DNA of 38,533 nt from a virus (lineage: Duplodnaviria > Heunggongvirae > Uroviricota > Caudoviricetes): the IMG/VR virus record IMGVR_UViG_2531839666_000019; one strand, given 5' to 3'. Positions 6,162-34,915 of this stretch are shown piece after piece. Every line of letters starts with the position of its first letter. Position 1 is the first letter of the stretch. The notes below the pieces were generated by a model, which searched no databases, was not told the DNA's origin, and saw only the letters and a program-made list of their open reading frames with translations. The translations under genes and the position numbers were made by a program.

Positions 6162-7037
6162 TTAAATTACGAAAACCTTGACGATAAGTTCTCCGTCTTT
6201 AGAAACTCTCTTCCCCTCAAGATCAGATTTCAGCCCCTCAGAATTAGTAATAAGCTGGTTCGGATCGTAGATGACACACCAGAGATTTTTGCAATCAGAG
6301 TGCCGACGATAATGCTCTATATCGATAATAAGTTCATCGCCGATTTTCTTTGCATGAGAACGATCACGAACAATTTTGGTTTCCAGTACTAATTTATGCG
6401 CAGGTAACAAAAAATCCATTCGAGTACTTGAACCAGCGTAACTTGGAGTAAACTCTTCTGGGCGGATGTCCTGAACCCATGGTCTGAGCAATGCATGGAG
6501 AAGGTCTTGCACGTCATATTCATTGCTAAAAGATAATGACTGGCTTCCTTTTCGCCTATGAGTAAGTGGATGCATTGCTCGCTGTAAGCCTTTGACCAGC
6601 CTTTCCAGTAAGTTCTCAACTTTTTCTGGCATTACTGGCTGTTGATAAGTAATTATGGTCTCTGGGTAATCCATATTGTGTGACGGGATGTGGCCTTCAG
6701 GCAACACTCGACCAAAACGATAATATCTAAGTCCATTCTCTTGTAACACAGCTTCAATTCTGTCTCGTTTTTCCTTCCATTCTGCATATTCGGGAGTACC
6801 TTCTTTTGGAGGTAAATCCATAAACTCCTCAATTACTCCGCCCAGAACTGCCAGACTATCTGTATCTGGATCTTGCCCTGCAAGAAATAACCAGTCTTTC
6901 CATTTTGTACTATGAGATCCTGCCGGAGGGTTTCCTGGTGCTCCCGAAGTAAGAAATAACGTATCTAAAGCTGCATGAGAGCCTGAGTTAGCAATGACAT
7001 CGCCAACTACTTTACATAAGGATCTTGATAACCGCAT
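6162..7037 (-). CDS. inserted accessory gene in the baseplate block; candidate PD-(D/E)xK-fold nuclease-like protein
   Basis: 291-aa ORF, visibly AT-richer than flanking genes, flanked by 71-bp and 81-bp spacers; C-terminal region contains D-x11-E-x-K (MDFLLPAHKLVLETKIV). Confidence 0.5.
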   Translation of the reverse strand: MRLSRSLCKVVGDVIANSGSHAALDTLFLTSGAPGNPPAGSHSTKWKDWLFLAGQDPDTDSLAVLGGVIEEFMDLPPKEGTPEYAEWKEKRDRIEAVLQENGLRYYRFGRVLPEGHIPSHNMDYPETIITYQQPVMPEKVENLLERLVKGLQRAMHPLTHRRKGSQSLSFSNEYDVQDLLHALLRPWVQDIRPEEFTPSYAGSSTRMDFLLPAHKLVLETKIVRDRSHAKKIGDELIIDIEHYRRHSDCKNLWCVIYDPNQLITNSEGLKSDLEGKRVSKDGELIVKVFVI

Positions 7038-7118
7038 TTAAGTCCCCGCCAAATTAGTGTTAATTAAAAAATTCTATCATATCCGCGGGAGAGGAAATGG
7101 AGTCACATACTTGAAAAA

Positions 7119-7631
7119 TTAGTGAGAGTGATGATTGGAATTCTGTCCATCTGCAAATATGTTACCAGTCGCATGGGTACTCCCTTTGATTTCAAGATTG
7201 CCGTTCACCATGATAGTGTCAGCTGTCAAATCAATGGTTTTCCCTTTCAGACTAATACCCACTGCAACCTCGATCACCACATGCTCGATACCTCCTTTGA
7301 CCGTCAGCGTATGGGTCGCGCGGTCATAACTGAACTCCGCGCCATCAGCGTACTTCGTGCCCCGGACGTTTTTATCACCGAACGGCGGTTTATCGACGTC
7401 TGAGTACACCGCGCCCAGAATAACACCATCCTCGCCGTTGGCATCGAGCAGCACCTCAACCTGCTCCCCCACGTCAGGGAGCCAGTAATCCTTGTTATCC
7501 TGGGTATTGCGCTGCAGCACGTTAAGCCAGTTTGTGCGCAGATTATCGCATTCAGGCAGACGAACGCGGGCCTGAACCCTGTCGGCATCAACGGCACTGA
7601 CCGTACCGACCTGGCGGGTGACACCAGTCAT
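7119..7631 (-). CDS. baseplate spike/assembly protein V-like (Mu gp45-like)
   Basis: 170-aa ORF with typical size, position and small beta-rich sequence. Confidence 0.7.
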   Translation of the reverse strand: MTGVTRQVGTVSAVDADRVQARVRLPECDNLRTNWLNVLQRNTQDNKDYWLPDVGEQVEVLLDANGEDGVILGAVYSDVDKPPFGDKNVRGTKYADGAEFSYDRATHTLTVKGGIEHVVIEVAVGISLKGKTIDLTADTIMVNGNLEIKGSTHATGNIFADGQNSNHHSH

Positions 7632-8782
7632 TTTTTCTTCTCCTTAATCACCGTCGATGTACTGCCATCCGGGTGATAAACCGTGAGTTTCTGAGTTTTT
7701 TGTTTTTTCCCTCTTGTGACTGGCCCCCGTGCCACTTCCAGCTCTGTGGTGTAGCCGCTGTTACGCTCAAACGCATGGCGGGCAGTGATTATCAGCCATG
7801 GACCGGATAATTGTCCAAAGCCCACCAGTTCAATTTTGTTGCCTGCTGTCAGTTGAGGCGTTCCCGTCAGCGTCAGGGAGCCGTTCTGCTGGTATTCGTT
7901 ATGTCTGGCCAGTGCTGAATCCGCTTTAATCCGGGCACTGTCCGGGTCGCTGACGCGGCTGTTAACTTTAAGTGAGTCAGCGCTGGTAACCTTACCGCCT
8001 TTGAGCTTTTTGTCGCTTTCACGGGTACCACCATCAGCTTCGTAGACGATCAGTTTTTTACTGCTGCTTTTCTGGTGTTTTACCTTTGCAGATTTATAGA
8101 CCCGGTTGATGGTGTCACGCAGGGAAAAGTGGGCCACATCCTGCGGTTTTAACTGCCTGACCGGCTCCTGACTGCGCAATGTGGCCAGATGAGAAAAAAT
8201 CAACTGGTCACTGACCACTTTCACTGCATAACCATACTCGCTGGCCAGCCGGCGCAGAAAACCCACGTCGGTTTCAGCATACTGGGTCACCCGGTCGATT
8301 CTGATGGACTCAATGCTGCCCACCAGTTTCAGCCGGTGCTTTCTGGCAATCCGACCCGCAACAGCTGCCAGCGTGGTGTTCTCAAAACCACGGCTGGATT
8401 TAGTCCGCAGAGCACTGTTAACCGAGGTGGCCACCCCACGGATAGCGACAACGGACGCGGGCGAACTCACTTCGATCTCGTCTATTGAGAATGTACCGTA
8501 GGACAGCAGTTTCTCGCCCTGATAACCCATTTTCAGCGTCAGCGTGTCACCCTTGCCCGGATACCACTTATCCAGCCAGCGGCCATCGGTGTCGTCCAGC
8601 TCCACCTCAATGGTATCGGACTCATTTTTGATGTTATCGCTCCAGACCACACGGGTGACATAAGGCGCGATATCAGAGGTGATGTTTTTCTGCAAATACC
8701 ACAGAGTGAATACCGGCGTCAGCACATCGCTGACGCCGGTTAACGCTGATGTGGCTTGCGCAGTACTGTTTATCTCAGCCAT
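7628..8782 (-). CDS. tail protein, late control D-like/baseplate hub (Mu gp44-like)
   Basis: 384-aa ORF between DNA-circularisation-like and spike genes; lysine-rich C-terminus. Confidence 0.7.
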   Translation of the reverse strand: MAEINSTAQATSALTGVSDVLTPVFTLWYLQKNITSDIAPYVTRVVWSDNIKNESDTIEVELDDTDGRWLDKWYPGKGDTLTLKMGYQGEKLLSYGTFSIDEIEVSSPASVVAIRGVATSVNSALRTKSSRGFENTTLAAVAGRIARKHRLKLVGSIESIRIDRVTQYAETDVGFLRRLASEYGYAVKVVSDQLIFSHLATLRSQEPVRQLKPQDVAHFSLRDTINRVYKSAKVKHQKSSSKKLIVYEADGGTRESDKKLKGGKVTSADSLKVNSRVSDPDSARIKADSALARHNEYQQNGSLTLTGTPQLTAGNKIELVGFGQLSGPWLIITARHAFERNSGYTTELEVARGPVTRGKKQKTQKLTVYHPDGSTSTVIKEKKK

Positions 8783-20233: not shown

Positions 20234-21727
20234 TCAGCCGTTGTCACGCTCATGCAGACGCCCCCAGATATTTGCCACAAAGAGAATGCGGGCCAGCCGC
20301 TCCTGCAGATCGTCCGTGTTCATCTGAGGGTAGAGCTCCGCCAGTTCGCCCAGCAGCTCAGACGGGTTAACCCCGTTTTCGACCCGCCTGAACAGAGGTG
20401 CCAGGACGGGTTCCAGCGTGCCATTTAACACACCTCCGTTCATCAGAATGTCCAGCGCGTCGTCAAGCTGCTGTTGTGCATCATGATCGGCGCTTATCGC
20501 CTCGGCAAACTCCGCAGGCACTGCCCCGTCCGCAACCGGTGCATCAGAGAGGTCAATATCCCCCTCCTGCAGCTGGTACTCCCGCATGAAGTACTGCGGG
20601 GTCAGGCGTAGTCCCGCGCGGGTGAGTTTTTCGTCGCGGGTGGCACGGGTGTCATCAATGGCCTCCTGTTCCCACATGGCCCAGACCGGACACGGCACAT
20701 CGCCGAAGTTCAGGGTGACCACCGTTCTGATGACCTGATTCACTGCCGCCTGAATGATGTCCGCATCCGCATCGCGGATATCAGCCGTCACCTCCAGCCC
20801 GGCCTGTGCAGAGGCCTTGTTACTGTTCGCTTCCGTGGTCTGATTCTGACCGAGTAATGCAATGGAGATCTCACTGCGTGACAGCGTGATCAGCTCGCGG
20901 AATACCTCGCTGCTGTCCGCCTTGCCATCCGCGGCTTTGAGTTCAATGCTGCTGTCATCGGGGATGGCGGCCACAGCGTCCTCCACCATCTGCTCCATGG
21001 AGTCCAGCAGTTTTTCAATCTCTGCATCATTTGCACCCCTCGGGTGCTTACCGATCACCCACGGGGAGCCAAACTTTTCGGCAAAGCGGAGCCAGAATTT
21101 CATCCCGCCTTTCTTGAAGGCGACCGGCCAGAAGCACATGGACAGGTCCGGGAAACCGTAAGGATTGTCATACGAGGCATCCTGTGCCGGCACCACGAAT
21201 TTTGACGGTGACAGCAGCTCACCCTCCACACCCGCATCACGCGCCCGGAAGCGCAGGCAGTTGTCCGTATCAAACTGAAACCACTCAGGCGGTTTGCCGA
21301 CAATATCCGTCACCGCCCACGCCCTGACCGAACGGCCCCACATGATTTCACAGGGCTGATACCCGTAGAGCACGGCATCGCTCATCTCACCGATGATGCG
21401 GGACAGATCCAGATCGTCGAGCATGTCGCGGATGAAACGGAAGACCCGGGCAGAAGCGTGACCGCGCTCCAGTCCACGCTCCAGCGATTTGAGCGCTGCT
21501 TTACGTCTGCGGATACAGCCTCCGACCAGCGGGTCGGTGCGCAGTTCGCGGTAGATACGGATATCCCGTCCCTGAGCCTTGAGAATGGGATCAGGATTGG
21601 GCAGATACATGCCCAGTCCGTAAAAGTCGATCGCGCGGCTGCGGGAGGCAATCTGCGCGGTCAGTGATTTCTGAGGCTCAGAAAAAGCAACAAATTCATC
21701 GGGTGAAACCCAGATACCCCTCGCCAT
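20234..21727 (-). CDS. portal protein (Mu gp29-like, DUF935-like)
   Basis: 497-aa ORF directly after the terminase large subunit, typical size. Confidence 0.8.
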   Translation of the reverse strand: MARGIWVSPDEFVAFSEPQKSLTAQIASRSRAIDFYGLGMYLPNPDPILKAQGRDIRIYRELRTDPLVGGCIRRRKAALKSLERGLERGHASARVFRFIRDMLDDLDLSRIIGEMSDAVLYGYQPCEIMWGRSVRAWAVTDIVGKPPEWFQFDTDNCLRFRARDAGVEGELLSPSKFVVPAQDASYDNPYGFPDLSMCFWPVAFKKGGMKFWLRFAEKFGSPWVIGKHPRGANDAEIEKLLDSMEQMVEDAVAAIPDDSSIELKAADGKADSSEVFRELITLSRSEISIALLGQNQTTEANSNKASAQAGLEVTADIRDADADIIQAAVNQVIRTVVTLNFGDVPCPVWAMWEQEAIDDTRATRDEKLTRAGLRLTPQYFMREYQLQEGDIDLSDAPVADGAVPAEFAEAISADHDAQQQLDDALDILMNGGVLNGTLEPVLAPLFRRVENGVNPSELLGELAELYPQMNTDDLQERLARILFVANIWGRLHERDNG

Positions 21728-23321
21728 CAGAATCCCTCCAGCATACGGGCCGCCTGACGACGACGGCGTGAGCTTGCCTTCACCGGCCCTTTGTTAATTT
21801 CACGGCTGGCGAAATACGCCAGCGCCAGTGCGATGGCTGAATCCCCGTGGCGTTTACCACCGTCAGCCTTTGCTTTTGAGCGTTGCTCCGGTACGCGGGG
21901 GACACCGTTCACCACCTGAACGGCCCGCAGGTCATCCAGTGTGTCTTCATCCTTTGGTAAGTCCACCAGGTTACCGTCTTCCAGTGCAGCTTTGACCGGA
22001 GGCATATGCTCCCTGTACCAGCCTTCGGTTGGCATCACCTGCTGAATCCGGCTGGAGCCGTAGCGCTGCATGGCGTATTCAGCCAGATAGGCACCATTAC
22101 CACGGGCATCAAACGCTGCACCCAGCAGACCGGGCAGGCCATCCATCAGATACCAGGTGATTTGCTCCTGCTGTCTGAACGGCACGTTACGCAGCTCCAG
22201 TACGAATGGCACGCGTCGTACCAGGTTCTTCTCCTGCAGCAGGGGATAGTCCACCGACAAATCACCGCTACGGCCAAAGTCGCGCCCCAGGAAAGAGCGG
22301 GCATCAGTGGGGAGTGCCTCCAGCAATGGTTTCAGATACTCATCAAGCCAGTCCTGCGTCTCGCGGAAGCGAACCTCATCAGACAGCAGTTCATAACCTT
22401 CCTTGCAGGTCAGACGCAATACCGGCGTATCAGCGGACATGCGGGACTCTATCAGGGCACGGGACAGCCAGGCACCGCCACCGTTGGCCGGAATACAGTC
22501 AAGCTCTTCGGATGCGCCGGCACCGTAGAATTTGTACACCGATGCCATCCAGGCCTGCTCGGAGGCCTCCGACCATTCCTTCCCGGTGCGCAGACAGACG
22601 CGCCGGAACAGCCCCTCAGATACGGCTTCCCGGAAAGTGATGCGATGTATGCTGCCTCCCTGACGTCCGGCACGGATATCCCCGATAAGCGTATTGAACG
22701 GATTGTCGTCACCGTTATGGGTGGAGATAACGTGTACCTTCCCCCCCAGATAAGCATCGCCAGCGCCGCTTTCAGCAGTTCGTCCAGTTGCTCATGGAAC
22801 GCCGCTTCGTCGATAACAATAATACCCTGACGGCCACGCAGGTTAGACGGGCGGCTGGAGAGCGCAACAATACGAAAGCCGGAGTCAGGAAATTTGATGG
22901 TGTAAGTCCTGATGTGTTTGTCGTCGTCGTCCTCTTCCCAGAATCCTTCTTCAATTTCACTGGCCGCATAGTTGAATGCCCGTGCCCACATCGCACACGC
23001 CTGAATGTATTCGACGGTCATGTCTTGGTTATAAGCGATGTAATACACATTCATCCCGCCTGCTGGCGCAGAAGAGGCGGCGGTCAGTACGTTATCGGAT
23101 GCCTCAGCCCATGTAATACCGGTACGACGGCTCTTTTCTATCACCTTAAGCGGAGAGGTGTCTGCCACCCAGCGCTGCTGGTAAGGCAACAGAACGGGAG
23201 GGGCATCCAGCGCCGAGGTATCAGGCAAAACGGGAGCAAGGTTATTCCTCCCGTCCATGGGACTCATCCCTTCGGGGCCGCCGCCAGCGGCGTTTAAAAT
23301 CACTCCGGATGATTTTGTCAT
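21727..23321 (-). CDS. terminase large subunit (Mu gp28-like), frame broken at a G7 run (plus-strand C7 at 22741-22747)
   Basis: Two overlapping ORFs (22452-23321 and 21727-22548); adding one G to the run gives a continuous protein of about 531 aa through WGGKVHVISTHNGDDNPFNTLIGDIRAGRQGGSIHRITF. Confidence 0.8.
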
Positions 23322-25865: not shown

Positions 25866-26212
25866 AGTCCTGTTGCCACAGCCAGACAGACCGCTGCAAC
25901 AATCAGTGCACGGCGGATTAACGCAGCAGAAAATACAAGGTGAAGGCCGGTCTGCACAGGGAAACGCCCTTCAGCCATCAGCCTGTCTTCATGTTTCAGG
26001 TACTGACCGGGACGGGCTTTGGGGAAGAGCGAACGGTCAAGCCAGTAACCCAGCACTGCTGCCAGCGTGATGAGTGCCAGCTTGTAGATCACAACAGGCA
26101 ACTGCTGTGGCGAGACCAGAGCGATGGTGCCCAGCAACAGCACTGAGGTCAGCAGCCAGCCGCTGAGGCGAGGTTTTTTAACAGGGGGAATGAATTTTTT
26201 CAGGCTTTTCAT
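25862..26212 (-). CDS. holin-like membrane protein
   Basis: Three predicted TM helices; start trimmed to the ATG at 26212, which is preceded by AAGGAGA; ATGA overlap with the endolysin start. Confidence 0.6.
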   Translation of the reverse strand: MKSLKKFIPPVKKPRLSGWLLTSVLLLGTIALVSPQQLPVVIYKLALITLAAVLGYWLDRSLFPKARPGQYLKHEDRLMAEGRFPVQTGLHLVFSAALIRRALIVAAVCLAVATGL

Positions 26213-26342
26213 GTGTGTCTCCTTGTTTGGTGGAGACAGCATCACAAATGTGGCGGGATACGGATTTTAAAGCGCGTTATAAGTGTTCGCAGAGGGAAGC
26301 GACCAGAATGGTCGCACACAAAACATAGGGGAGGCAAGCACA

Positions 26343-26666
26343 ATGACTGAACCGAAACAGTCTGGTATTAAAAAAGGGTTCCTCTTTGGGAGCAGAATCG
26401 GAGAGCAGAATAAAACTTACACGCTAAGCTTGGATGCATGTTGTCCAACCGAAGCGATTATAGAGCTGAAAAACGTTCTGGTTGCACTTGAAGAGAGAAG
26501 AAGTCATTTCGCCAGCGGAGAAAACAACGTCATGCTAATTGGCGATGTGGCGGCGACATCACGATATAAAACCGCACCTAATCCTGCGATTCAGTTATCC
26601 TTCGACCAACGAATACTGGAAGCGGAATCAGCAGTTCCCAGAACGGTTCGTCCTCACCAGTCTTAA
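26343..26666 (+). CDS. hypothetical protein
   Basis: 107-aa ORF from the ATG at 26343, preceded by GGGGAGG; divergent from the late operon; overlaps the 3' end of the 26578-27153 gene, so one of the two may be shorter or spurious. Confidence 0.35.
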   Translation: MTEPKQSGIKKGFLFGSRIGEQNKTYTLSLDACCPTEAIIELKNVLVALEERRSHFASGENNVMLIGDVAATSRYKTAPNPAIQLSFDQRILEAESAVPRTVRPHQS

Positions 26667-27153
26667 CTGGGGCTGCTTCACCCGACCAGTAAAGCCAAGC
26701 ACGGTGATACAGTTCCAGCACCGGGCAATCACTGTTCAATAACCTCATATCTCCGCGATGCACCTGCTCATTTGTGATGACTTCATATATCGGTGCCGTT
26801 CTTATTTCGTCTTCGCCTCTCTCATCAGCCAGTAATTCCCTGAACTTCCTGACTTCACTCAGATGCTGACAGGCAAACAGTGACTGATAGCGGGAAGGTT
26901 TATCAGGAAAATGGCTACGGCGAACTAACTCAAACACCAGACCGACCAGCAGACTTCTGCTGATTCCACTGTCATCTTCCATTTTAGGGCCGGGGTTATA
27001 GAGATAGTTATACCCGTGACTCGAAAGGCCATTGGGATACATCTGATGAAGAAAAGCGGCCAGTTCTGGCATTTCAGGCTCGTATTTTCCGGTAATTACA
27101 TGACAAGGCGAAGGCAGACGACTAGCGGAATCAAGTGTGTAATACGTTCCCAT
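26578..27153 (-). CDS. hypothetical protein (accessory/cargo)
   Basis: 191-aa ORF with AAGGA upstream of the ATG; no recognisable motif. Confidence 0.45.
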   Translation of the reverse strand: MGTYYTLDSASRLPSPCHVITGKYEPEMPELAAFLHQMYPNGLSSHGYNYLYNPGPKMEDDSGISRSLLVGLVFELVRRSHFPDKPSRYQSLFACQHLSEVRKFRELLADERGEDEIRTAPIYEVITNEQVHRGDMRLLNSDCPVLELYHRAWLYWSGEAAPVKTGEDEPFWELLIPLPVFVGRRITESQD

Positions 27154-27561
27154 TCAGAAAACAATCCTTATCGAACAAACACTGCACGTAGGTAATGCAT
27201 CCAGTAAATCGCGTTAATAGAAATCATGTATCTCAAAACTTCACTCTGAACTCTGACAGTGAAAGAACGACCAGCCCGGTACCCGAACTCCGGGCTGGTC
27301 ATCGCCCCACAGGAATGCACTGTGAGCCGACCGAGGTTCAGTCAGTCTCGCGAGACCAGACTAGCCTGCCATATTTTTATAATTATAAAAGGGTTACAGA
27401 TTATGAAAATGCAGACATTCCCCATCGCTCCATGGATTGGTTGTAAACGCCGCCATGCCAGACATATTCTGGCCGATGTTTCCTAGCACGCACGAATATG
27501 AGGCAACTGACGAGAATAAATGATGCGTCAGAATGAACCGTCGACACCGTGATTTCAGGTT

Positions 27562-28173
27562 TCAAAAATCTGGAGAAGGTATATCTATCTGACCGACGTT
27601 TCGTAACCACATCTCTTGCTTTGTTTCTTTATTGGTTCGGGCGATATCATTAGCATTGTATCTGCATGTTTTAACCGCAACCTCACGAACTCGTGCTATA
27701 GGAGTATTTGTGTAGAATTTAAGATCTTCCTCTACCGCTCGTATGGCGATAAGCCCTCCACTCTGAAAACCGCTGGTTACTTTTAAAAGATCAACTCCTT
27801 GGTTATAAACGGCATTACATACGTTAGGGAACTCATCTTCTACAGTTTTGGGGATCATCAGCATATCAGGAAGACCCTGTAACACGTTATCTTCCTTTGG
27901 CCTCCATGCCCTTCCCAAAAAAGCTGTTATAGGTTGTGGTGTAGAAAGAAATGCCAATTCTATATAAAACAAACCACTGTAGTGATCGCGTAACGAATAG
28001 ACTAGTAAATGATCTTTTCCAGTTTTACTTGCATTGCTAAGTTTTATATCAAATGGTTTTTTCTGGTACTTAAGCAATCCATCAACTCCCGCATAATAAT
28101 GCTTTGAAACAGCAACAGAAAGTTGATGTACTTGGTTCGGATAATCTGTTCTATATCGTTTAATTAGCCCCAT
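27562..28173 (-). CDS. hypothetical protein, AT-rich cargo gene
   Basis: 203-aa ORF, visibly AT-richer than the phage backbone; no recognisable motif. Confidence 0.5.
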   Translation of the reverse strand: MGLIKRYRTDYPNQVHQLSVAVSKHYYAGVDGLLKYQKKPFDIKLSNASKTGKDHLLVYSLRDHYSGLFYIELAFLSTPQPITAFLGRAWRPKEDNVLQGLPDMLMIPKTVEDEFPNVCNAVYNQGVDLLKVTSGFQSGGLIAIRAVEEDLKFYTNTPIARVREVAVKTCRYNANDIARTNKETKQEMWLRNVGQIDIPSPDF

Positions 28174-28232
28174 AATAGCCTCGCAGTTATTTTCTATTTC
28201 AAAATATAACGATATTTACTATCTGGAGTGTT

Positions 28233-28269
28233 TTGTTGGTCAAGTAATAGAGCTCTACATGGGGCGGTC
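28233..28269. repeat. 37-bp direct repeat, left copy flanking IS1
   Basis: TTGTTGGTCAAGTAATAGAGCTCTACATGGGGCGGTC, identical to 29038-29074. Confidence 0.9.
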
Positions 28270-28284
28270 GGTAATGACTCCAAC

Positions 28285-28788
28285 TTATTGATAGTGTTTT
28301 ATGTTCAGATAATGCCCGATGACTTTGTCATGCAGCTCCACCGATTTTGAGAACGACAGCGACTTCCGTCCCAGCCGTGCCAGGTGCTGCCTCAGATTCA
28401 GGTTATGCCGCTCAATTCGCTGCGTATATCGCTTGCTGATTACGTGCAGCTTTCCCTTCAGGCGGGATTCATACAGCGGCCAGCCATCCGTCATCCATAT
28501 CACCACGTCAAAGGGTGACAGCAGGCTCATAAGACGCCCCAGCGTCGCCATAGTGCGTTCACCGAATACGTGCGCAACAACCGTCTTCCGGAGCCTGTCA
28601 TACGCGTAAAACAGCCAGCGCTGGCGCGATTTAGCCCCGACATAGCCCCACTGTTCGTCCATTTCAGCGCAGACAATCACATCACTGCCCGGCTGTATGC
28701 GCGAAGTTACCGACTGCGGCCTGAGTTTTTTAAGTGACGTAAAGTCGTGTTGAGGCCAACGCCCATAATGCGGGCTGTTGCCCGGCAT
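28285..28788 (-). CDS. insB: IS1 InsB (transposase reading frame, normally expressed as InsAB by frameshift)
   Basis: 167-aa ORF matching IS1 InsB. Confidence 0.9.
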
Positions 28789-28982
28789 CCAACGCCATTC
28801 ATGGCCATATCAATGATTTTCTGGTACGTACCGGGTTGAGAAGCGGTGTAAGTGAACTGCAGTTGCCATGTTTTACGGCAGTGAGAGCAGAGATAGCGCT
28901 GATGTCCGGCGGTGCTTTTGCCGTTACGCACCACCCCGTCAGTAGCTGAACAGGAGGGACAGCTGATAGAAACAGAAGCCAC
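28707..28982 (-). CDS. insA: IS1 InsA
   Basis: 91-aa protein [40 protein letters not shown]. Confidence 0.95.
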
Positions 28983-29010
28983 TGGAGCACCTCAAAAACA
29001 CCATCATACA

Positions 29011-29985
29011 CTAAATCAGTAAGTTGGCAGCATCACCTTGTTGGTCAAGTAATAGAGCTCTACATGGGGCGGTCAAAACACGGGCATAACGACCATCGGG
29101 GTTTATGTTGATGTAACAAGTTTTCCCTTTAACACCATAAGATTCAGGTATTATTGCCTGTGTAGACACCGTGAATTTAAGGGTATGCCAGCCCGATTTT
29201 TGCTTGTAGCTTGAAACCGAATGGAAATCATCTGAGTACTTATTTAACCCTGGAAACATGCTGCGTAATGCTGGGATGGAATCTTCTATTATTTTGTCGT
29301 TGGTTTTAATGTTAAAAACGCTGGTTTCAGTAGATGCTACTGCTTTAGCATTTCCCCATTTACCAGCGAACACAATCATTCCCACGAAAAATATTGCGAC
29401 AAGAACTAACGCTCCCCCCAACACTACTACATGAGGCTTCCGGCTTCTGGTTGGTACAGTCGCGACTGATTTTGCCCCGCTGTCCGATGGAGGTGATAGA
29501 GTTTTACTCTCATCACGAATATTCAGCAGATCATCAAAATAACCAAACACAGCCTGCAACTGCTCTTTGTCCAGGCCTTTAAGATGGGTTGTACCGAAAT
29601 GCTTCAGACAGTATCTGTCACGGTCAAGACGATACCTAGGGTCAGTAAGCACCATTATTTTGCTGACCAGAAGATTACAGTCCTTCATATTCTGGATCTG
29701 TTGTGCATATCTCTGGAGGATCTCAACCGCACCATGATAATCAGCCGCAGTCATTTCATTAACTGTTTTGGTATTAAGTTTCGTGTGGATCGTCATCCAT
29801 AGTTCGCGCTTACTTTCCCCCAGATCAACCAATTCATCCATCAATCTGTGTAAATCGCGTTTTTGCAGCAACGAAATTGGTTGCTGGGCAGAGGGAAGTA
29901 TGTCAGCAGAATAGTTATGAATGGTAACATCACCGCTGACAACGTTACCCACATCTCCGTTAACTGTTTGCTTCTCTTTACTCAT
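29011..29985 (-). CDS. single-pass membrane protein co-transcribed with the repressor; 3' end replaced by IS1 sequence
   Basis: 324-aa ORF; N-terminal GDVGNVVSGDVTIHNY motif, TM helix VVVLGGALVLVAIFFVGMIVFAG; last 8 codons and stop lie inside IS1; without IS1 the frame would continue leftward to a stop near 28194. Confidence 0.6.
   Translation of the reverse strand: MSKEKQTVNGDVGNVVSGDVTIHNYSADILPSAQQPISLLQKRDLHRLMDELVDLGESKRELWMTIHTKLNTKTVNEMTAADYHGAVEILQRYAQQIQNMKDCNLLVSKIMVLTDPRYRLDRDRYCLKHFGTTHLKGLDKEQLQAVFGYFDDLLNIRDESKTLSPPSDSGAKSVATVPTRSRKPHVVVLGGALVLVAIFFVGMIVFAGKWGNAKAVASTETSVFNIKTNDKIIEDSIPALRSMFPGLNKYSDDFHSVSSYKQKSGWHTLKFTVSTQAIIPESYGVKGKTCYININPDGRYARVLTAPCRALLLDQQGDAANLLI
29038..29074. 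repeat. 37-bp direct repeat, right copy flanking IS1
   Basis: Identical to 28233-28269. Confidence 0.9.
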
Positions 29986-30443
29986 TTTCTCTTTGTATTT
30001 TTGTTCATTATTCCACCTGTTCCTATGGTTACGTTACCTTTGATAACATTCCCCAGAACATCTCCATGAATAACCTGTTCCGCCCGTTCTCTGGAGGAGC
30101 CAGTCGTCAATGCCGACAAAACTGAACCTTTGACTTGTAACGGTGCTTGCCGGTAGTGCTGAAGTAACTCCATTTCATCACGTGATAAAGTTATACCTGA
30201 TGATTCCCCAGTAAGAATGAACTGTACGTTGGCCCCAATTCTTGCAAAGGCTGCAAGTAACTCACCTCCGGGAACTGCAACCCCTCGTTCATATTTCCCC
30301 CACATTTCTCTTGAAACGCCACAAAGGGCTGCTACTTCAGCCTGCTTGAGTGATAACCGCGAACGCTCAGCTTTGAACCGCGACGCGCAAAGAGAATCAA
30401 AATTCACATAAACCTCATTGACAATGAGAACAATAGTTCTCAT
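29982..30443 (-). CDS. XRE-family HTH repressor (CI-like, functional analogue of Mu c)
   Basis: HTH segment LSLKQAEVAALCGVSREMWGKYERGVAVPGGELLAAFARIGANVQFILTG; divergent from the Ner-like gene. Confidence 0.75.
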   Translation of the reverse strand: MRTIVLIVNEVYVNFDSLCASRFKAERSRLSLKQAEVAALCGVSREMWGKYERGVAVPGGELLAAFARIGANVQFILTGESSGITLSRDEMELLQHYRQAPLQVKGSVLSALTTGSSRERAEQVIHGDVLGNVIKGNVTIGTGGIMNKNTKRK

Positions 30444-30493
30444 AATCTATCACATATAAAACAAACATCATTGCATCAACAAAGGAGACAACA

Positions 30494-30682
30494 ATGACTT
30501 CCGAACAAGTTAAAACTCTCTTCCGTCAGCGTGGTATCACGTTTACCCGCTGGGCCGAAGAACACGGCTACAGCCGCAATGAGGTCTATCGTGTTCTCAA
30601 TGGACAGACCAAAGCTCGTTACGGCAAAGCCCATGAAATTGCCGTAAAGCTGGGATTAAAACCCACGTCAAATGCGGCATAA
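30494..30682 (+). CDS. Ner-like/Cro-like small DNA-binding protein
   Basis: 62-aa protein with the GY...L.G....G..IA..LGL pattern resembling Ner-family regulators; first gene of the rightward early operon. Confidence 0.6.
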   Translation: MTSEQVKTLFRQRGITFTRWAEEHGYSRNEVYRVLNGQTKARYGKAHEIAVKLGLKPTSNAA

Positions 30683-30734
30683 ATTTTCCATATATGCAAC
30701 AGGTTATCACATATTGCAAAAATGGAAATGTGAC

Positions 30735-31043
30735 ATGAGTAAAGTAAATATCTCCAGTTCCGGGACCCGCATCCTACGTGTACTCAAAGCTCTACGCGGT
30801 CACTCTCTGAACGGTGTTTCTAACGGTGAACTGGCATCAGCCCTAGATGAGTCCCCGGCGAACATCAATCGAGCACTCAATACCCTTATCGAAGAGGGAC
30901 TAGCCCTGAAACTGGAAAACGGGCGTTTCGCACCAGGCATCCAGTTGCTGCAGATCGCCATGGCCCACAGTAACGAGATGGCACGTGCACAGGATCGCAT
31001 TAACGAAATCAACCAACGTGTTATTTCAGGTAGTCGTTTGTAA
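30735..31043 (+). CDS. winged-helix/HTH DNA-binding protein
   Basis: Segment GVSNGELASALDESPANINRALNTLIEEGLA; start chosen at the ATG at 30735 (the ORF-track alternative 30672 overlaps the Ner-like gene). Confidence 0.5.
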   Translation: MSKVNISSSGTRILRVLKALRGHSLNGVSNGELASALDESPANINRALNTLIEEGLALKLENGRFAPGIQLLQIAMAHSNEMARAQDRINEINQRVISGSRL

Positions 31044-31053
31044 GGAGTAATCA

Positions 31054-31965
31054 ATGGGACGCACCAAATCACCGGTTAGCACTGAACTGAACGTCGAGGT
31101 ACCGCTGTCGGATGATCTCAATGTCAGTCTAAACGCCATGACACAGCATCGCATGGAAATCATGCAACAGTTCGGCGATGGTCTGCCCTATGAGCGCGAT
31201 CGTGTTGTCCATGAGGCACGCTTTTATATGGCACAGAGCGCTGAGGCCATGCTGGAGGCAGGTAAGCGGCTGATAATCCTTAAGGAAAATGAACCACACG
31301 GGGAGTTTATAAAGATTCTTGAAAGTGAGTTGGGGCTGGCATACCGGACATCTGTGAGAATGATGCAAGCATCGACAAAATACTTATCCCCGGCGCTGAA
31401 ACCAAATGTGCCAACGTTGGCACATTTGGGAAAAGCCAAACTTTTCGAATTAATGACAGAAGACGACGAAGAGCTTGCCGAACTGGCCGACGGCGGCACA
31501 GTTGCCGGCATGACGCTTGACGATGTTGATCGCATGTCAGTACGTGAATTGCGTCAGGCCCTGCGTGAAGCGCGCGAAACCAACGCAGCACAACAGCGTG
31601 TTCTCGCCGATAAAAATGAAAAAATAGACTCACTCTCCACCAGACTGGAGAAGAAATCCCGTATTCAGCCACCTGAGCCTGATGAAGAGGTGAAGAAACT
31701 GCGGGCGGAAGTGACCGCGTTAGCGGTTGAGGCGGAATCTGCCATCGCCGTTCGACTGTCCAGCGCTTTTGAGACACTGTGCGCATATTGTGCTGAAAAC
31801 ATGATTGATACCCCCAGAGACTTCATGGCAGGCCTGGTCTGTCAACTGGAAAGCACAGCGCGTAGCCTGCGCTCCACATTTGACCTGCCGGACGAGCCAA
31901 CAGGCGATGTCGCGCCTTCATGGCTGACTGAGCCGACGCCACAGATTAACGGGCTGGAGGCATAA
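31054..31965 (+). CDS. hypothetical early protein with central coiled coil
   Basis: 303-aa ORF immediately upstream of the transposase gene. Confidence 0.45.
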   Translation: MGRTKSPVSTELNVEVPLSDDLNVSLNAMTQHRMEIMQQFGDGLPYERDRVVHEARFYMAQSAEAMLEAGKRLIILKENEPHGEFIKILESELGLAYRTSVRMMQASTKYLSPALKPNVPTLAHLGKAKLFELMTEDDEELAELADGGTVAGMTLDDVDRMSVRELRQALREARETNAAQQRVLADKNEKIDSLSTRLEKKSRIQPPEPDEEVKKLRAEVTALAVEAESAIAVRLSSAFETLCAYCAENMIDTPRDFMAGLVCQLESTARSLRSTFDLPDEPTGDVAPSWLTEPTPQINGLEA

Positions 31966-31968
31966 CCA

Positions 31969-33738
31969 ATGAATGCTGCCCTGACTGAACGACTGGTTTA
32001 TGTCGCCCGCGCGGCACGTGACGCGGGGCATGGTAAACGCGGTGCAATATACGACGCTGCCTGTGCTGAACTTGGCATGTCCCGCGCCACTCTGCTGCGC
32101 AGGCTGAAGGAGGTATCTGTGACTGATAAACGCAAAAAACGCGCCGATGCCGGGCGCAGCGCCCTGACCCGCGACGAAGCCGCGCTGATATCTGCCACAC
32201 TGCGTGAGGCCACCCGCAAGAACGGTAAGCGTCTCTATTCCATCGCAGATGCAGTGGAAACCCTGCGGGCTAACGGCTTTATCTCCGCAGGCAGAACAGA
32301 TGAAACCACCGGTGAGTTTTTCCCGTTGTCCGAAGATGCCATCAGTCGTGCCTTGCGTAACTATGGCCTGCACCCGGAACAACTGGATGCCCCTGCGCCG
32401 CATACCGAAGTGGCCAGTCTGCATCCCAATCACGTCTGGCAGATTGATGCCTCGCTCTGCACGCTTTACTACCTGAGCAATGGACACAAAGGGCTGCAGG
32501 TGATGGACAGCGCGAAGTTCTACAAGAATAAACCCGCTAACCTTGCCCGTATCGCCAGTGACCGCGTGTGGAGTTACGAGATTACCGACCATGCCAGCGG
32601 CTGGATTTACGTTGAGTATGTGACGGGTGCGGAATCCGGTGAGAACCTGTGTTCTGTGCTTATCAACGCCATGCAGGAGCGTGGCGGCGCAGACGTGCTG
32701 CACGGCGTGCCGAAAATACTCTATCTCGACCCCGGCTCGGCAAACACCGCGGGTATGACGAAAAACATGTGCCGCTCACTGGGCATCGACCTGATAGCGC
32801 ACAAGCCGCATAACGCCCGCGCCACCGGACAGGTGGAAAAGGCGCGTGACATTATCGAACGCAAGCTGGAGCCGGGTCTGAAATTCCGGCCGGTTCACAG
32901 TCTGGAAGAACTCAACGCGCTGGCCGCGAAATGGCGTAGCCACTTTAACGCAACAGCTGTTCACAGCCGCCACGGTAAAACCCGCACGGATATCTGGCTG
33001 AAGATTACTGCTGAGCAGCTGAAAAAAGCGCCTTCCGTTGAGGTATGCCGTGAACTGGCTGTGGCGACACCAGAACTCCGCAAAGTCACGCCAAAACTTC
33101 GTGTCTCGTTCCGGGGCACTGAATTTGACGTATCAACGGTACCGGGCGTACTGGTTGGTGAAAAACTGATGATTACCCGTAACCCATGGCGCAGCGATGT
33201 GGCACAGGTGGTTCTGACCGGTGAGGACGGCCACGAGACGTTCTTCCTGGTCGAAGAGGTCAGAAAGAACGAGTTTGGCTTTGCTGAAGGCGCGGCGGTA
33301 TTTGGCGAAAGTTACAAAGCCCTGCCGGAAACACCGGCACAGACGGCGGCAAAAGAAACCGAAGCGCTGGTCACCGGTACAGACAACGCCGCAGATGCAG
33401 CTGCCGCACGCAAGGCGAAGGCGCTGCCGTTCGGCGGGCGGCTTGACCCGTATAAACATATTGATGACGCCACACTTCCGGCCTGTATACCGAAGCGCGG
33501 TCAGGTCTCTGATGTACGCAGACCGCGCACTGAACAACGTCCCATGACTCATGTGGAGGCCGCGAAAGCCCTGCGCGATAAGTTCAGCGCCGACGGCCTT
33601 ACCTGGACGCCGGAACATTACCGCCAGTTAACGGCACAGTACCCGGACGGCGTACCGGAAGCCGCACTGGATGAAGTAATGGCCACGCTGACCACGCCGG
33701 CCCGCAGCAGCGTTATCAGCATTGTTAACGGCAACTGA
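31969..33738 (+). CDS. DDE transposase (Mu A-like, integrase-core family)
   Basis: 589-aa protein with DDE-type residues in HVWQIDAS and YLDPGSAN; followed by an overlapping AAA+ partner gene. Confidence 0.8.
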   Translation: MNAALTERLVYVARAARDAGHGKRGAIYDAACAELGMSRATLLRRLKEVSVTDKRKKRADAGRSALTRDEAALISATLREATRKNGKRLYSIADAVETLRANGFISAGRTDETTGEFFPLSEDAISRALRNYGLHPEQLDAPAPHTEVASLHPNHVWQIDASLCTLYYLSNGHKGLQVMDSAKFYKNKPANLARIASDRVWSYEITDHASGWIYVEYVTGAESGENLCSVLINAMQERGGADVLHGVPKILYLDPGSANTAGMTKNMCRSLGIDLIAHKPHNARATGQVEKARDIIERKLEPGLKFRPVHSLEELNALAAKWRSHFNATAVHSRHGKTRTDIWLKITAEQLKKAPSVEVCRELAVATPELRKVTPKLRVSFRGTEFDVSTVPGVLVGEKLMITRNPWRSDVAQVVLTGEDGHETFFLVEEVRKNEFGFAEGAAVFGESYKALPETPAQTAAKETEALVTGTDNAADAAAARKAKALPFGGRLDPYKHIDDATLPACIPKRGQVSDVRRPRTEQRPMTHVEAAKALRDKFSADGLTWTPEHYRQLTAQYPDGVPEAALDEVMATLTTPARSSVISIVNGN

Positions 33739-34915
33739 GGAGGGAAACATGCTGGTACTGAAGCAGCAACTGAAAGAGGCCCGTATTCCACAGGCGGTGG
33801 TGGCGAGAGCTGTCGATGTTTCTGAGGCCACGCTGGCCCAGATTGTGAATCATAACGCGTGGCCCCGCACCAGCCCCGGAGAAGTGCGCCGGCGTCTTGC
33901 GTCCTGGCTGGAAAGTCAGGGGATTGATACAGCGAAGAGTTTTGATGCTGTACAGGGCGCGGCCACTCCCCGTACAGCGGGTACCACAGATAAAACGAGC
34001 CTCAGTGAGGAAGAGAATATGTTACTCAAAAAACAGGTGTTATTCCCGGCAACCAAAAAAGCGTTTGGTCTTTTCCGTGACCCGTTCGCCGACGAAGCCA
34101 TGCAGGGTTCTGATGATGTGTTCACCACCCCGGACATTCGCTACGTGCGTGAGGCGTTGTACCAGACAGCCCGTCATGGTGGGTTTATGGCCGTCATCGG
34201 TGAGTCCGGTGCGGGTAAATCCACGCTGCGCCGCGACCTGACTGAACGTATCAACCGCGAGAATGCGCCGGTAATTGTTATCGAGCCATACATCATCGCT
34301 ATGGAAGACAACGATGTGAAAGGGAAAACCCTGAAGGCAGCAGCTATTGCCGAAGCCATTATCAGTACCATCGCACCACTGGAAAGCATCAGACGCAGTC
34401 AGGACGCCCGCTTTCGCCAGTTGCATCGCGTCCTGAAAGACAGCAGCCAGGCGGGGTTCAGCCACGTTCTGGTGATTGAGGAGGCCCACAGTCTGCCCAT
34501 TCCGACACTGAAACACCTCAAACGCTTTTTTGAGCTGGAGTCCGGTTTCAAAAAACTGCTGTCCATCGTGCTGATTGGCCAGCCGGAACTGGCGACAAAA
34601 CTGTCTGAACGCAATATGGAAGTCCGTGAAGTCGTTCAGCGCTGTGAGGTGGTCGAACTTCTGCCTCTGGACAATAACCTTGAAGAGTTTCTGACGTTCA
34701 AACTGCAACGGGCAGGTAAACAACTGACGGACATTATGGACGCCAGTGCAGTGGATGCCATACGTGCCCGCCTGAGCAATCCGGGAAGTCATCGTAAAAA
34801 TATGGTCAGCCTGTTGTATCCGCTGGCCGTCAGTAACCTGGTGATAGCCGCCATGAATCTGGCCGCTGAAATCGGGGTTCCACAGGTCAACGCTGACGTT
34901 GTCAAAGGGGTTTAA
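33722..34915 (+). CDS. transposition ATPase (Mu B/TniB-like AAA+)
   Basis: Walker A VIGESGAGKST and Walker B HVLVIEEAH; N-terminal HTH. Confidence 0.8.
   Translation: MLTATEEGNMLVLKQQLKEARIPQAVVARAVDVSEATLAQIVNHNAWPRTSPGEVRRRLASWLESQGIDTAKSFDAVQGAATPRTAGTTDKTSLSEEENMLLKKQVLFPATKKAFGLFRDPFADEAMQGSDDVFTTPDIRYVREALYQTARHGGFMAVIGESGAGKSTLRRDLTERINRENAPVIVIEPYIIAMEDNDVKGKTLKAAAIAEAIISTIAPLESIRRSQDARFRQLHRVLKDSSQAGFSHVLVIEEAHSLPIPTLKHLKRFFELESGFKKLLSIVLIGQPELATKLSERNMEVREVVQRCEVVELLPLDNNLEEFLTFKLQRAGKQLTDIMDASAVDAIRARLSNPGSHRKNMVSLLYPLAVSNLVIAAMNLAAEIGVPQVNADVVKGV

Follow-up and report, generated by a model that had tools for sequence, protein, structure and literature searches.

A stand-alone Mu-type transposase core without its catalytic triad, encoded on the repressor side of a BcepMu-like prophage of Escherichia coli

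Transposase-derived pseudoenzymes are well known in eukaryotes; those known from bacteria are mainly truncated products of transposase genes. Tn5 Inh and the P-element KP repressor are truncated or inactive, transposase-derived inhibitors of transposition. Both are made from the transposase gene itself, are near-identical to the transposase and keep its multimerisation surfaces, and Inh also retains the active site. The prophage gene described here, orf203, resembles them in being transposase-related, in missing part of the enzyme and in being predicted non-catalytic, and its product is a candidate poison of an active transposition complex. Unlike them, it belongs to an ancient, separate family, 23% identical to the transposase and also found far from transposons, and inhibition by it is only hypothesised.

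Compared with the core of Mu-/BcepMu-type transposase A (the equivalent of domain II-alpha; retroviral-integrase superfamily, with MuA, TnsB and IstA), orf203 has the D, D and E residues all replaced. It is moreover a separate gene of 203 codons, without the N-terminal end-binding domains and the C-terminal beta-barrel and partner-ATPase-binding domains of the enzyme. The principle of an inactive RNase H-fold binder is shared with the RNase H-like domain of Prp8 and with the PIWI domain of short prokaryotic Argonautes (SPARDA/SPARTA), but these are different families within the fold and have known partners or effectors, whereas none is evident for orf203. As regards genomic position, two exclusion genes that Pseudomonas phage Fc02 expresses in the lysogen, olg1 and gene 10, are likewise accessory and co-transcribed with, or adjacent to, the c repressor (PMC9936078). 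The Fc02 proteins are, however, small (7.9 kDa), are not transposase-derived and have no sequence or structure relation to orf203.

The stretch of DNA analysed (the window, 38,533 nucleotides) is a transposable E. coli prophage, BcepMu-like (Bcepmuvirus-type), with a transposase that shares 98% identity with the one of Escherichia phage PhiKM. The genes on the minus strand run in the order c repressor, orf328, IS1, orf203, DUF2441 gene, holin, SLT lysin and late genes; transposase A and a MuB-like AAA_22 ATPase (33749..34915) occupy 31969..34915. The features on which the analysis turns are the following.

27562..28173, minus strand: orf203, 203 aa, stand-alone Mu-type DDE transposase core of RNase H-like fold, predicted to be catalytically dead.
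28179..28182, minus strand: GAGG Shine-Dalgarno of orf203, 5 nt before the ATG (28173), read from the sequence.
29982..30443, minus strand: c-type HTH repressor (HTH_31/HTH_3), at the head of the presumed c-orf328-orf203 operon.
29011..29985, minus strand: orf328, 324 aa here (truncated), membrane protein, phrog_10002, Flk-like N-terminal domain.
31969..33738, plus strand: resident BcepMu-type transposase A, 589 aa, Pfam rve match, DDE triad intact (D160, D254, E290).
26578..27153, minus strand: DUF2441 cargo gene (phrog_5663), Pfam/PHROG match, with its own promoter-like site at 27409..27382.
27273..27289, minus strand: terminator-like hairpin downstream of orf203, from a consensus scan only.

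A first-pass annotation had described a 203-aa ORF at 27562..28173, AT-richer than the prophage backbone and without a recognisable motif. The ORF and its composition are confirmed: a GC content of 38.9% compares with 53.5% in the window as a whole and 0.53-0.61 in the structural-gene backbone. This low GC is common to the entire repressor-side block from 26 to 30.5 kb, and orf203 is not alone in it. The lack of a motif holds for library HMMs. Searches of Pfam, NCBIfam and PADLOC gave no match to orf203 at E<=1, neither to rve (PF00665), which the resident transposase matches, nor to its relatives; PHROG gave a noise-level match only, and a profile search of PDB sequences returned noise (SUI1 and Spc24 at E>0.5). 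For homology the statement fails: a clear relation to the transposase catalytic core emerges, though only from tblastn against phages, from pairwise BLASTP and hhalign, and from the comparison of folds.

A tblastn search of 50,697 phage records gave 20 matches to orf203, all within transposase A genes of Mu-like phages (PhiKM, BcepMu, phiE255 and B3), with 21-23% identity over ~90% of the query. Within the window, BLASTP aligns residues 11-191 of orf203 to residues 152-345 of the resident transposase (E 5e-11, 23% identity). When a 42-member family profile was compared with a profile of seven Mu-type transposases, hhalign paired residues 6-203 of orf203 with transposase residues 147-360 (of 589 aa) over 198 columns, with a probability of 99.7% and an E-value of 3e-26. 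The AlphaFold (AF2) model of orf203 (pLDDT 91.7, pTM 0.88) has the RNase H-like alpha/beta fold and superposes on integrase and transposase cores. The fold-comparison score is highest for ShCAST TnsB (16.0 over 175 residues, 2.5 A), followed by IstA (14.9), Tn7 TnsB (14.6), retroviral integrases (12-14) and MuA (11.6). The orf203 product is, on its own, the catalytic core of Mu-type transposases, and its fold is RNase H-like. It is not a functional Mu-type transposase A: only the core is present, the N-terminal end/enhancer DNA-binding domains and the C-terminal domains of the transposase are missing, and the MuB-type ATPase adjoins the true transposase instead. By its sequence, the resident transposase A is the active paralogue of orf203.

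The catalytic residues D160, D254 and E290 are invariant in 7/7 full-length transposases and align to the D, D-35-E of a retroviral integrase. In orf203, S19 takes the place of D160 and P108 that of D254, and the equivalent of E290 is Q137, G139 or I142 across three aligners; residues 133-145 (TSGFQSGGLIAIR) include no Asp or Glu. The same loss is seen across the family, in which acidic residues are found in 0/173 and 0/186 sequences at the two Asp columns (among 198 family sequences). The first of these columns holds L, I, S or V, the second is Pro in 83%, and the Glu column is occupied by R (57%), H (12%) or I (9%). Membership of orf203 among DDE enzymes fails, as it has no triad, no rve match and no flanking domains. 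At the level of sequence, the retained scaffold and the lost DDE carboxylates identify its product as a pseudoenzyme, in which the scaffold is kept, the catalytic centre is remodelled and the three metal-binding carboxylates are gone.

Conservation within the family follows two patterns. Fifteen columns are invariant, and nearly all of the invariant residues are common to full-length Mu-type transposases. The shared signature comprises PN13, VHQL, D63-H64-x-S66-G67, G-x-P102, R/K145, E148 and K185...W189, and a basic residue of the active-site helix is R/K in 85% of the family and R in 6/7 transposases. Conserved in the family only are S23, H25, Q37, K39, P108, S134-G135-F136 and G140. Of these, S23/H25, P108, S134-F136 and G140 map to the strand, loop and helix that formerly bore the DDE residues, and on the predicted fold they appear to cluster around the former active site.

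The gene is real, intact, accessory and under purifying selection. It has a ribosome-binding site, and its orthologues in Salmonella (82% identity) and Serratia (57%) have the same length. The dN/dS between the E. coli and Salmonella orthologues is 0.067, at a dS near saturation. Proteins identical to the orf203 product are found on at least 1000 public contigs, every one of them named 'hypothetical protein'. A reading as a functionless remnant of a second transposase, whether decaying fragment or pseudogene, would account for homology to only the core part of a transposase and for the loss of the catalytic residues, but members from different phyla keep start, stop and a length of ~200 aa, 15 columns are invariant, the AF2 model is very confident, and the gene has its own Shine-Dalgarno and the low dN/dS given above. 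We consider this reading hardly credible, and the conservation data effectively exclude it.

A presence/absence survey, as proposed in the first-pass annotation, bore out the variable occurrence of the gene: the locus is present in 27/5426 complete E. coli genomes and is replaced by other cargo in relatives. PhiKM, in spite of its 98% identical transposase and shared repressor and holin flanks, lacks orf203, and so do THO-015-type E. coli prophages with the same repressor/holin flanks. The sister cargo in this slot consists of a DNA adenine methylase (Dam) and three or four small hypothetical genes, and alternative cargo is seen in PhiKM (29732..32185 of locus L036) and in E. coli THO-015 (H47). 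The differing cargo of sister prophages therefore marks the slot between repressor and holin as a cargo hotspot of E. coli BcepMu-like phages. Since these relatives do without orf203, the gene is not needed for phage transposition or growth, and this dispensability favours a moron-type function over a core regulatory one. Variable presence at a fixed slot and a deviant base composition are both features of a moron. The first-pass annotation had described orf203 as AT-rich, directly beside IS1 and typical, in composition and location, of horizontally acquired morons. Its accessory nature and deviant GC are upheld; the proximity to IS1 is incidental, and the protein is not motif-free. The annotation had also held that clear homology to a structural or housekeeping phage protein would speak against cargo. 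Such homology, to a core phage protein, was formally found, but it does not overturn the cargo status because the orf203 family is diverged (23% identity), dispensable and separately distributed.

In the intact allele, represented by locus L002 of E. coli 503025 (orf328 CDS 6896..7882), c, orf328 and orf203 look like one operon, given that orf328 overlaps the repressor stop codon by 4 nt and is separated from orf203 by 20 nt. From its position in the c-repressor gene string, orf203 would be expected to be expressed in the lysogen. The orf328 protein has one central transmembrane helix and an N-terminal cytoplasmic domain that matches the Flk N-terminus; its match to NCBIfam PRK10715 (Flk, a flagellar regulator) has an E-value of 1.7e-11, below the cut-off. 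The repressor operon may end at the hairpin at 27273..27289. Terminators and promoters were called by consensus match, and the numbers of such sites are at or below shuffle expectation. Both the hairpin and the DUF2441 promoter-like site are located in the 408-bp spacer between orf203 and the DUF2441 gene, which has a single-base deletion at ~27374 relative to E. coli 503025. An Rfam search of 26000..30800 gave no family match.

The DUF2441 family is placed by Pfam in the ADP-ribosyltransferase clan (PMC7955679), and because of this membership the protein may be a toxin-like or defence effector. Its gene is not consistently linked to orf203: it is absent beside the Salmonella orthologue, and in Serratia an unrelated 146-aa gene is found in its place.

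The IS1 insertion between orf328 and orf203 comprises the following features.

28270..29037, minus strand: IS1 copy, with insA at 28707..28982 and insB at 28285..28788; Pfam DDE_Tnp_IS1 and InsA matches.
28194..28269, minus strand: orphaned 3' end of orf328, by comparison with the IS-free allele of E. coli 503025 (L002).
28233..28269, no strand assigned: left copy of a 37-bp direct duplication flanking IS1, from two BLAST HSPs that overlap at L002 6935..6971.
29038..29074, no strand assigned: right copy of the 37-bp direct duplication, from the same HSP overlap.

The adjacency noted in the first-pass annotation is correct, as the right end of IS1 at 28270 is 96 bp upstream of the orf203 ATG (28173). 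As a meaningful link between IS1 and orf203 it was rejected: IS1 is found at this site in 0/27 E. coli genomes with the locus (the best cover, 85%, corresponds to the query minus IS1). The IS1 copy is a later, strain-private insertion outside the cargo module. The comparison with E. coli 503025 gave 99.93% identity, with no difference at all in orf203 itself. IS1 sits within the last codons of orf328 and cuts off its 3' end, so that the truncated gene ends in 8 codons from the IS1 inverted repeat (GDAANLLI, then stop). The natural TAG stop of orf328 lies at 28194..28196, 20 nt before the orf203 ATG. A consensus scan found no promoter-like site between IS1 and the orf203 ATG, and IS1 probably uncoupled orf203 from the repressor promoter in the present strain. 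Insertion of IS1 usually duplicates ~9 bp of its target, and the duplication seen here is unusually long. It is perfect (ttgttggtcaagtaatagagctctacatggggcggtc) and present as a single copy in the IS-free allele.

A further difference from E. coli 503025 was observed at ~22741, where a run of C is shortened from 8 to 7 (within 21727..23321, minus strand). This splits a 513-aa terminase-large-like gene into two overlapping ORFs, and is either a homopolymer sequencing error or an inactivating or phase-variable frameshift. Unless it is a sequencing error, the frameshift plus IS1 would render this copy of the prophage defective.

In an exhaustive profile search of sequences clustered at 50% identity, 550 representatives matched the orf203 family at E<=1e-3, of which 98 reached E<=1e-30. 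Among the 150 best listed of the ~550 representatives, most are ~200-230 aa and ~20 are longer. A C-terminal TPR/ST7-like domain was found in 8/10 of the longer relatives scanned, and 1 of these 8 also has GLUG repeats. In the fused relatives (P0062, P0102, P0114, P0117, P0128, P0129, P0131 and P0134) the core is N-terminal in proteins of 485-734 aa; the GLUG-bearing protein has 1184 aa. Such fusions suggest a wider role, in binding or sensing. A separate TPR gene beside stand-alone members, as a Rosetta-stone relationship would have it, was not seen in the ten immediate neighbours. There is no model of the family in Pfam, NCBIfam, PHROG or PADLOC, and literature searches (family accessions, inactive transposases in Mu-like prophages, transposase-derived defence genes) returned nothing; we thus found no description of the family in curated libraries or the searchable literature.

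Close relatives (at least 49% identity) come from Salmonella, Serratia and the loci L039 and L038. Those in the BcepMu-like prophages of Salmonella and Serratia occupy the same slot, in the order repressor, 327-329-aa gene, orf203 homologue. In a metagenomic Mu-like element (L039), the homologue overlaps the 3' end of the repressor and is divergent from a Ner-like gene. The lysogen-side position downstream of the c repressor is common to four contexts, namely those of E. coli, Salmonella, Serratia and L039. At another locus (L038), the homologue adjoins ParB/RepB and serine recombinase genes. IMG/VR contains only four family loci, two of them from the E. coli prophage described here. A non-Mu phage contig from IMG/VR encodes a homologue next to the terminase, with no Mu-like genes within 8 kb.

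The distant members were studied at 29 genome loci, from Gammaproteobacteria, Bacteroidota, Desulfobacterota, Acidobacteriota, Chlamydiota, Ignavibacteriota and WOR-3, among others. At 27/29 of these loci no Mu-like genes lie within 8 kb, and at the other two the match itself is a full-length transposase. Taken with the non-Mu phage contig, this means that the function of the family is not tied to a resident Mu-like element. All-against-all BLASTP of the neighbours at 34 loci gave no conserved partner gene outside Enterobacterales, and a 382-aa upstream gene at L006 is unrelated to orf328. The neighbours include genes for XhoI endonuclease, AbiEii, type IIG RM, MADS, SoFic/Fic, PDC-S04/S24, ParE, a CoiA-like nuclease and a HATPase_c_3 protein. 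The neighbourhoods are rich in conflict genes, an association that is qualitative and uncontrolled for background. Strings of small co-directional ORFs had brought to mind a polymorphic-toxin immunity array, which was rejected, as the Pfam summary of the neighbours contains no Imm families and is dominated by RM, Abi and Fic.

At three loci from Desulfobacterales or proteobacteria, the same pair of genes precedes the orf203 homologue (L027 4281..7975, L028 4257..7960 and L033 3393..6791). The pair encodes proteins of ~995 aa and ~235 aa with no Pfam match, and the gene set may be a local multi-gene system. In two of the three loci, a frameshift splits the orf203 homologue.

Our preferred reading, held tentatively and a little short of an even chance, is that orf203 encodes a non-catalytic binder that acts in conflict between phages or mobile elements, including by mimicry of the DDE core. 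The orf203 core would take up DNA substrates, transposition intermediates or subunit interfaces needed by the active core, the candidate sites being DNA ends, target DNA, strand-transfer intermediates and subunit interfaces, and would carry out no chemistry. It could still occupy these sites because the structural signature and the basic helix residue are kept, and because the family proteins are mildly basic (pI 8.6-9.7). Made in the lysogen, orf203 would impede superinfecting transposable phages, or other DDE elements, in their replicative transposition. The lysogen-side position and the conflict genes that adjoin family members elsewhere speak for this reading. Truncated transposase inhibitors such as Tn5 Inh offer a precedent for the mechanism. 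A precedent for the position comes from transposable Pseudomonas phage Fc02, in which genes co-transcribed with the repressor mediate superinfection exclusion (PMC9936078).

Mimicry of the DDE transposase core, taken alone, is doubtful. The identity to the resident transposase is only 23%, and co-assembly is not assured. The partner ATPases of the MuB and TnsC type contact the C-terminus of the transposase (MuA, TnsB), not the core domain. Mimicry by the core is weakened as a result, since the core is not known as a docking site of these ATPases. Further points against it are the distance of most family members from any Mu-like element and the TPR fusions, with the wider binding role that they suggest. 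The wider proposal, that the family represents unrecognised single-gene immunity factors, inert 'decoy' Mu-type transposase cores spread across bacterial phyla, is speculative and on balance unlikely. Such decoys, in prophages and in defence islands, would sit on the substrates or subunit interfaces of the active enzyme and block transposable phages in their replicative transposition, or other DDE elements in their integration; in TPR-fused versions, detection would be tied to a sensor that binds protein.

The main alternative to the binder reading has nothing to do with transposition: orf203 would be a general module of defence islands or of sensing, in which the dead RNase H-like scaffold, alone or TPR-fused, binds nucleic acid or protein and which the prophage carries as an anti-phage or host-benefit moron. 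It is possible, though on the unlikely side. Family members are solitary genes in many phyla, adjoined by genes of the RM, Abi, Fic, MADS and ParE types and away from Mu-like genes, one is in a non-Mu phage contig, some relatives have the C-terminal TPR/ST7-like domain, and residues conserved only in the family appear to cluster where the active site was remodelled. On the other hand, a single-gene system of 200 aa shows no evident effector activity or partner, and PADLOC (PADLOC-DB v2) gave no match at E<=1. Nearly all invariant residues, moreover, are inherited from Mu-type transposases, which fits retained ancestral interaction surfaces no less than a new function. The same family-specific polar residues, placed where the DDE residues used to be, could instead mean that orf203 is still an enzyme, with a new catalytic set at the remodelled site (e.g., S23/H25, K109, S134 and Q137). 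We regard this as very improbable: no acidic metal ligands are left, no known catalytic motif matches, and Pro at the second Asp position with Arg, His or Ile at the Glu position is typical of a filled, inactive site.

Two other alternatives start from the prophage itself, and both are improbable. In one, orf203 is made with the repressor, regulates the transposition of its own prophage by damping leaky transposase and so stabilises lysogeny, consistent with its homology to the resident transposase core and its place in the c-repressor gene string of four Mu-like contexts. However, PhiKM and the E. coli prophages with the same flanks lack orf203, which is hence dispensable for the phage life cycle, and most family members are outside Mu-like elements. 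The other takes orf328 and orf203 as a two-gene module, with the membrane protein orf328 as sensor or effector and orf203 as its cytoplasmic partner; the pair, with a gap of 11-20 nt, is kept in E. coli, Salmonella and Serratia. Against it, the homologue in L039 directly follows the repressor with no orf328 in between, no homologue of orf328 occurs at L038 or at any of the 29 genome loci, and phrog_10002 is present in phage genomes, whereas the phage records searched contain no orf203 homologue (transposase A matches only).

What is new here is an old and widespread bacterial family made only of a dead Mu-type core and unnamed in curated libraries, whose members turn up repeatedly in the immunity operons of transposable prophages and beside genes for restriction and abortive infection. 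If the non-catalytic binder does interfere with DDE elements, it would represent a new route by which cells and prophages exclude transposable phages, and a new tool for inhibiting MuA- or TnsB-type enzymes. Even otherwise, the 'hypothetical protein' of at least 1000 public E. coli contigs gains a fold, an ancestry and testable hypotheses.
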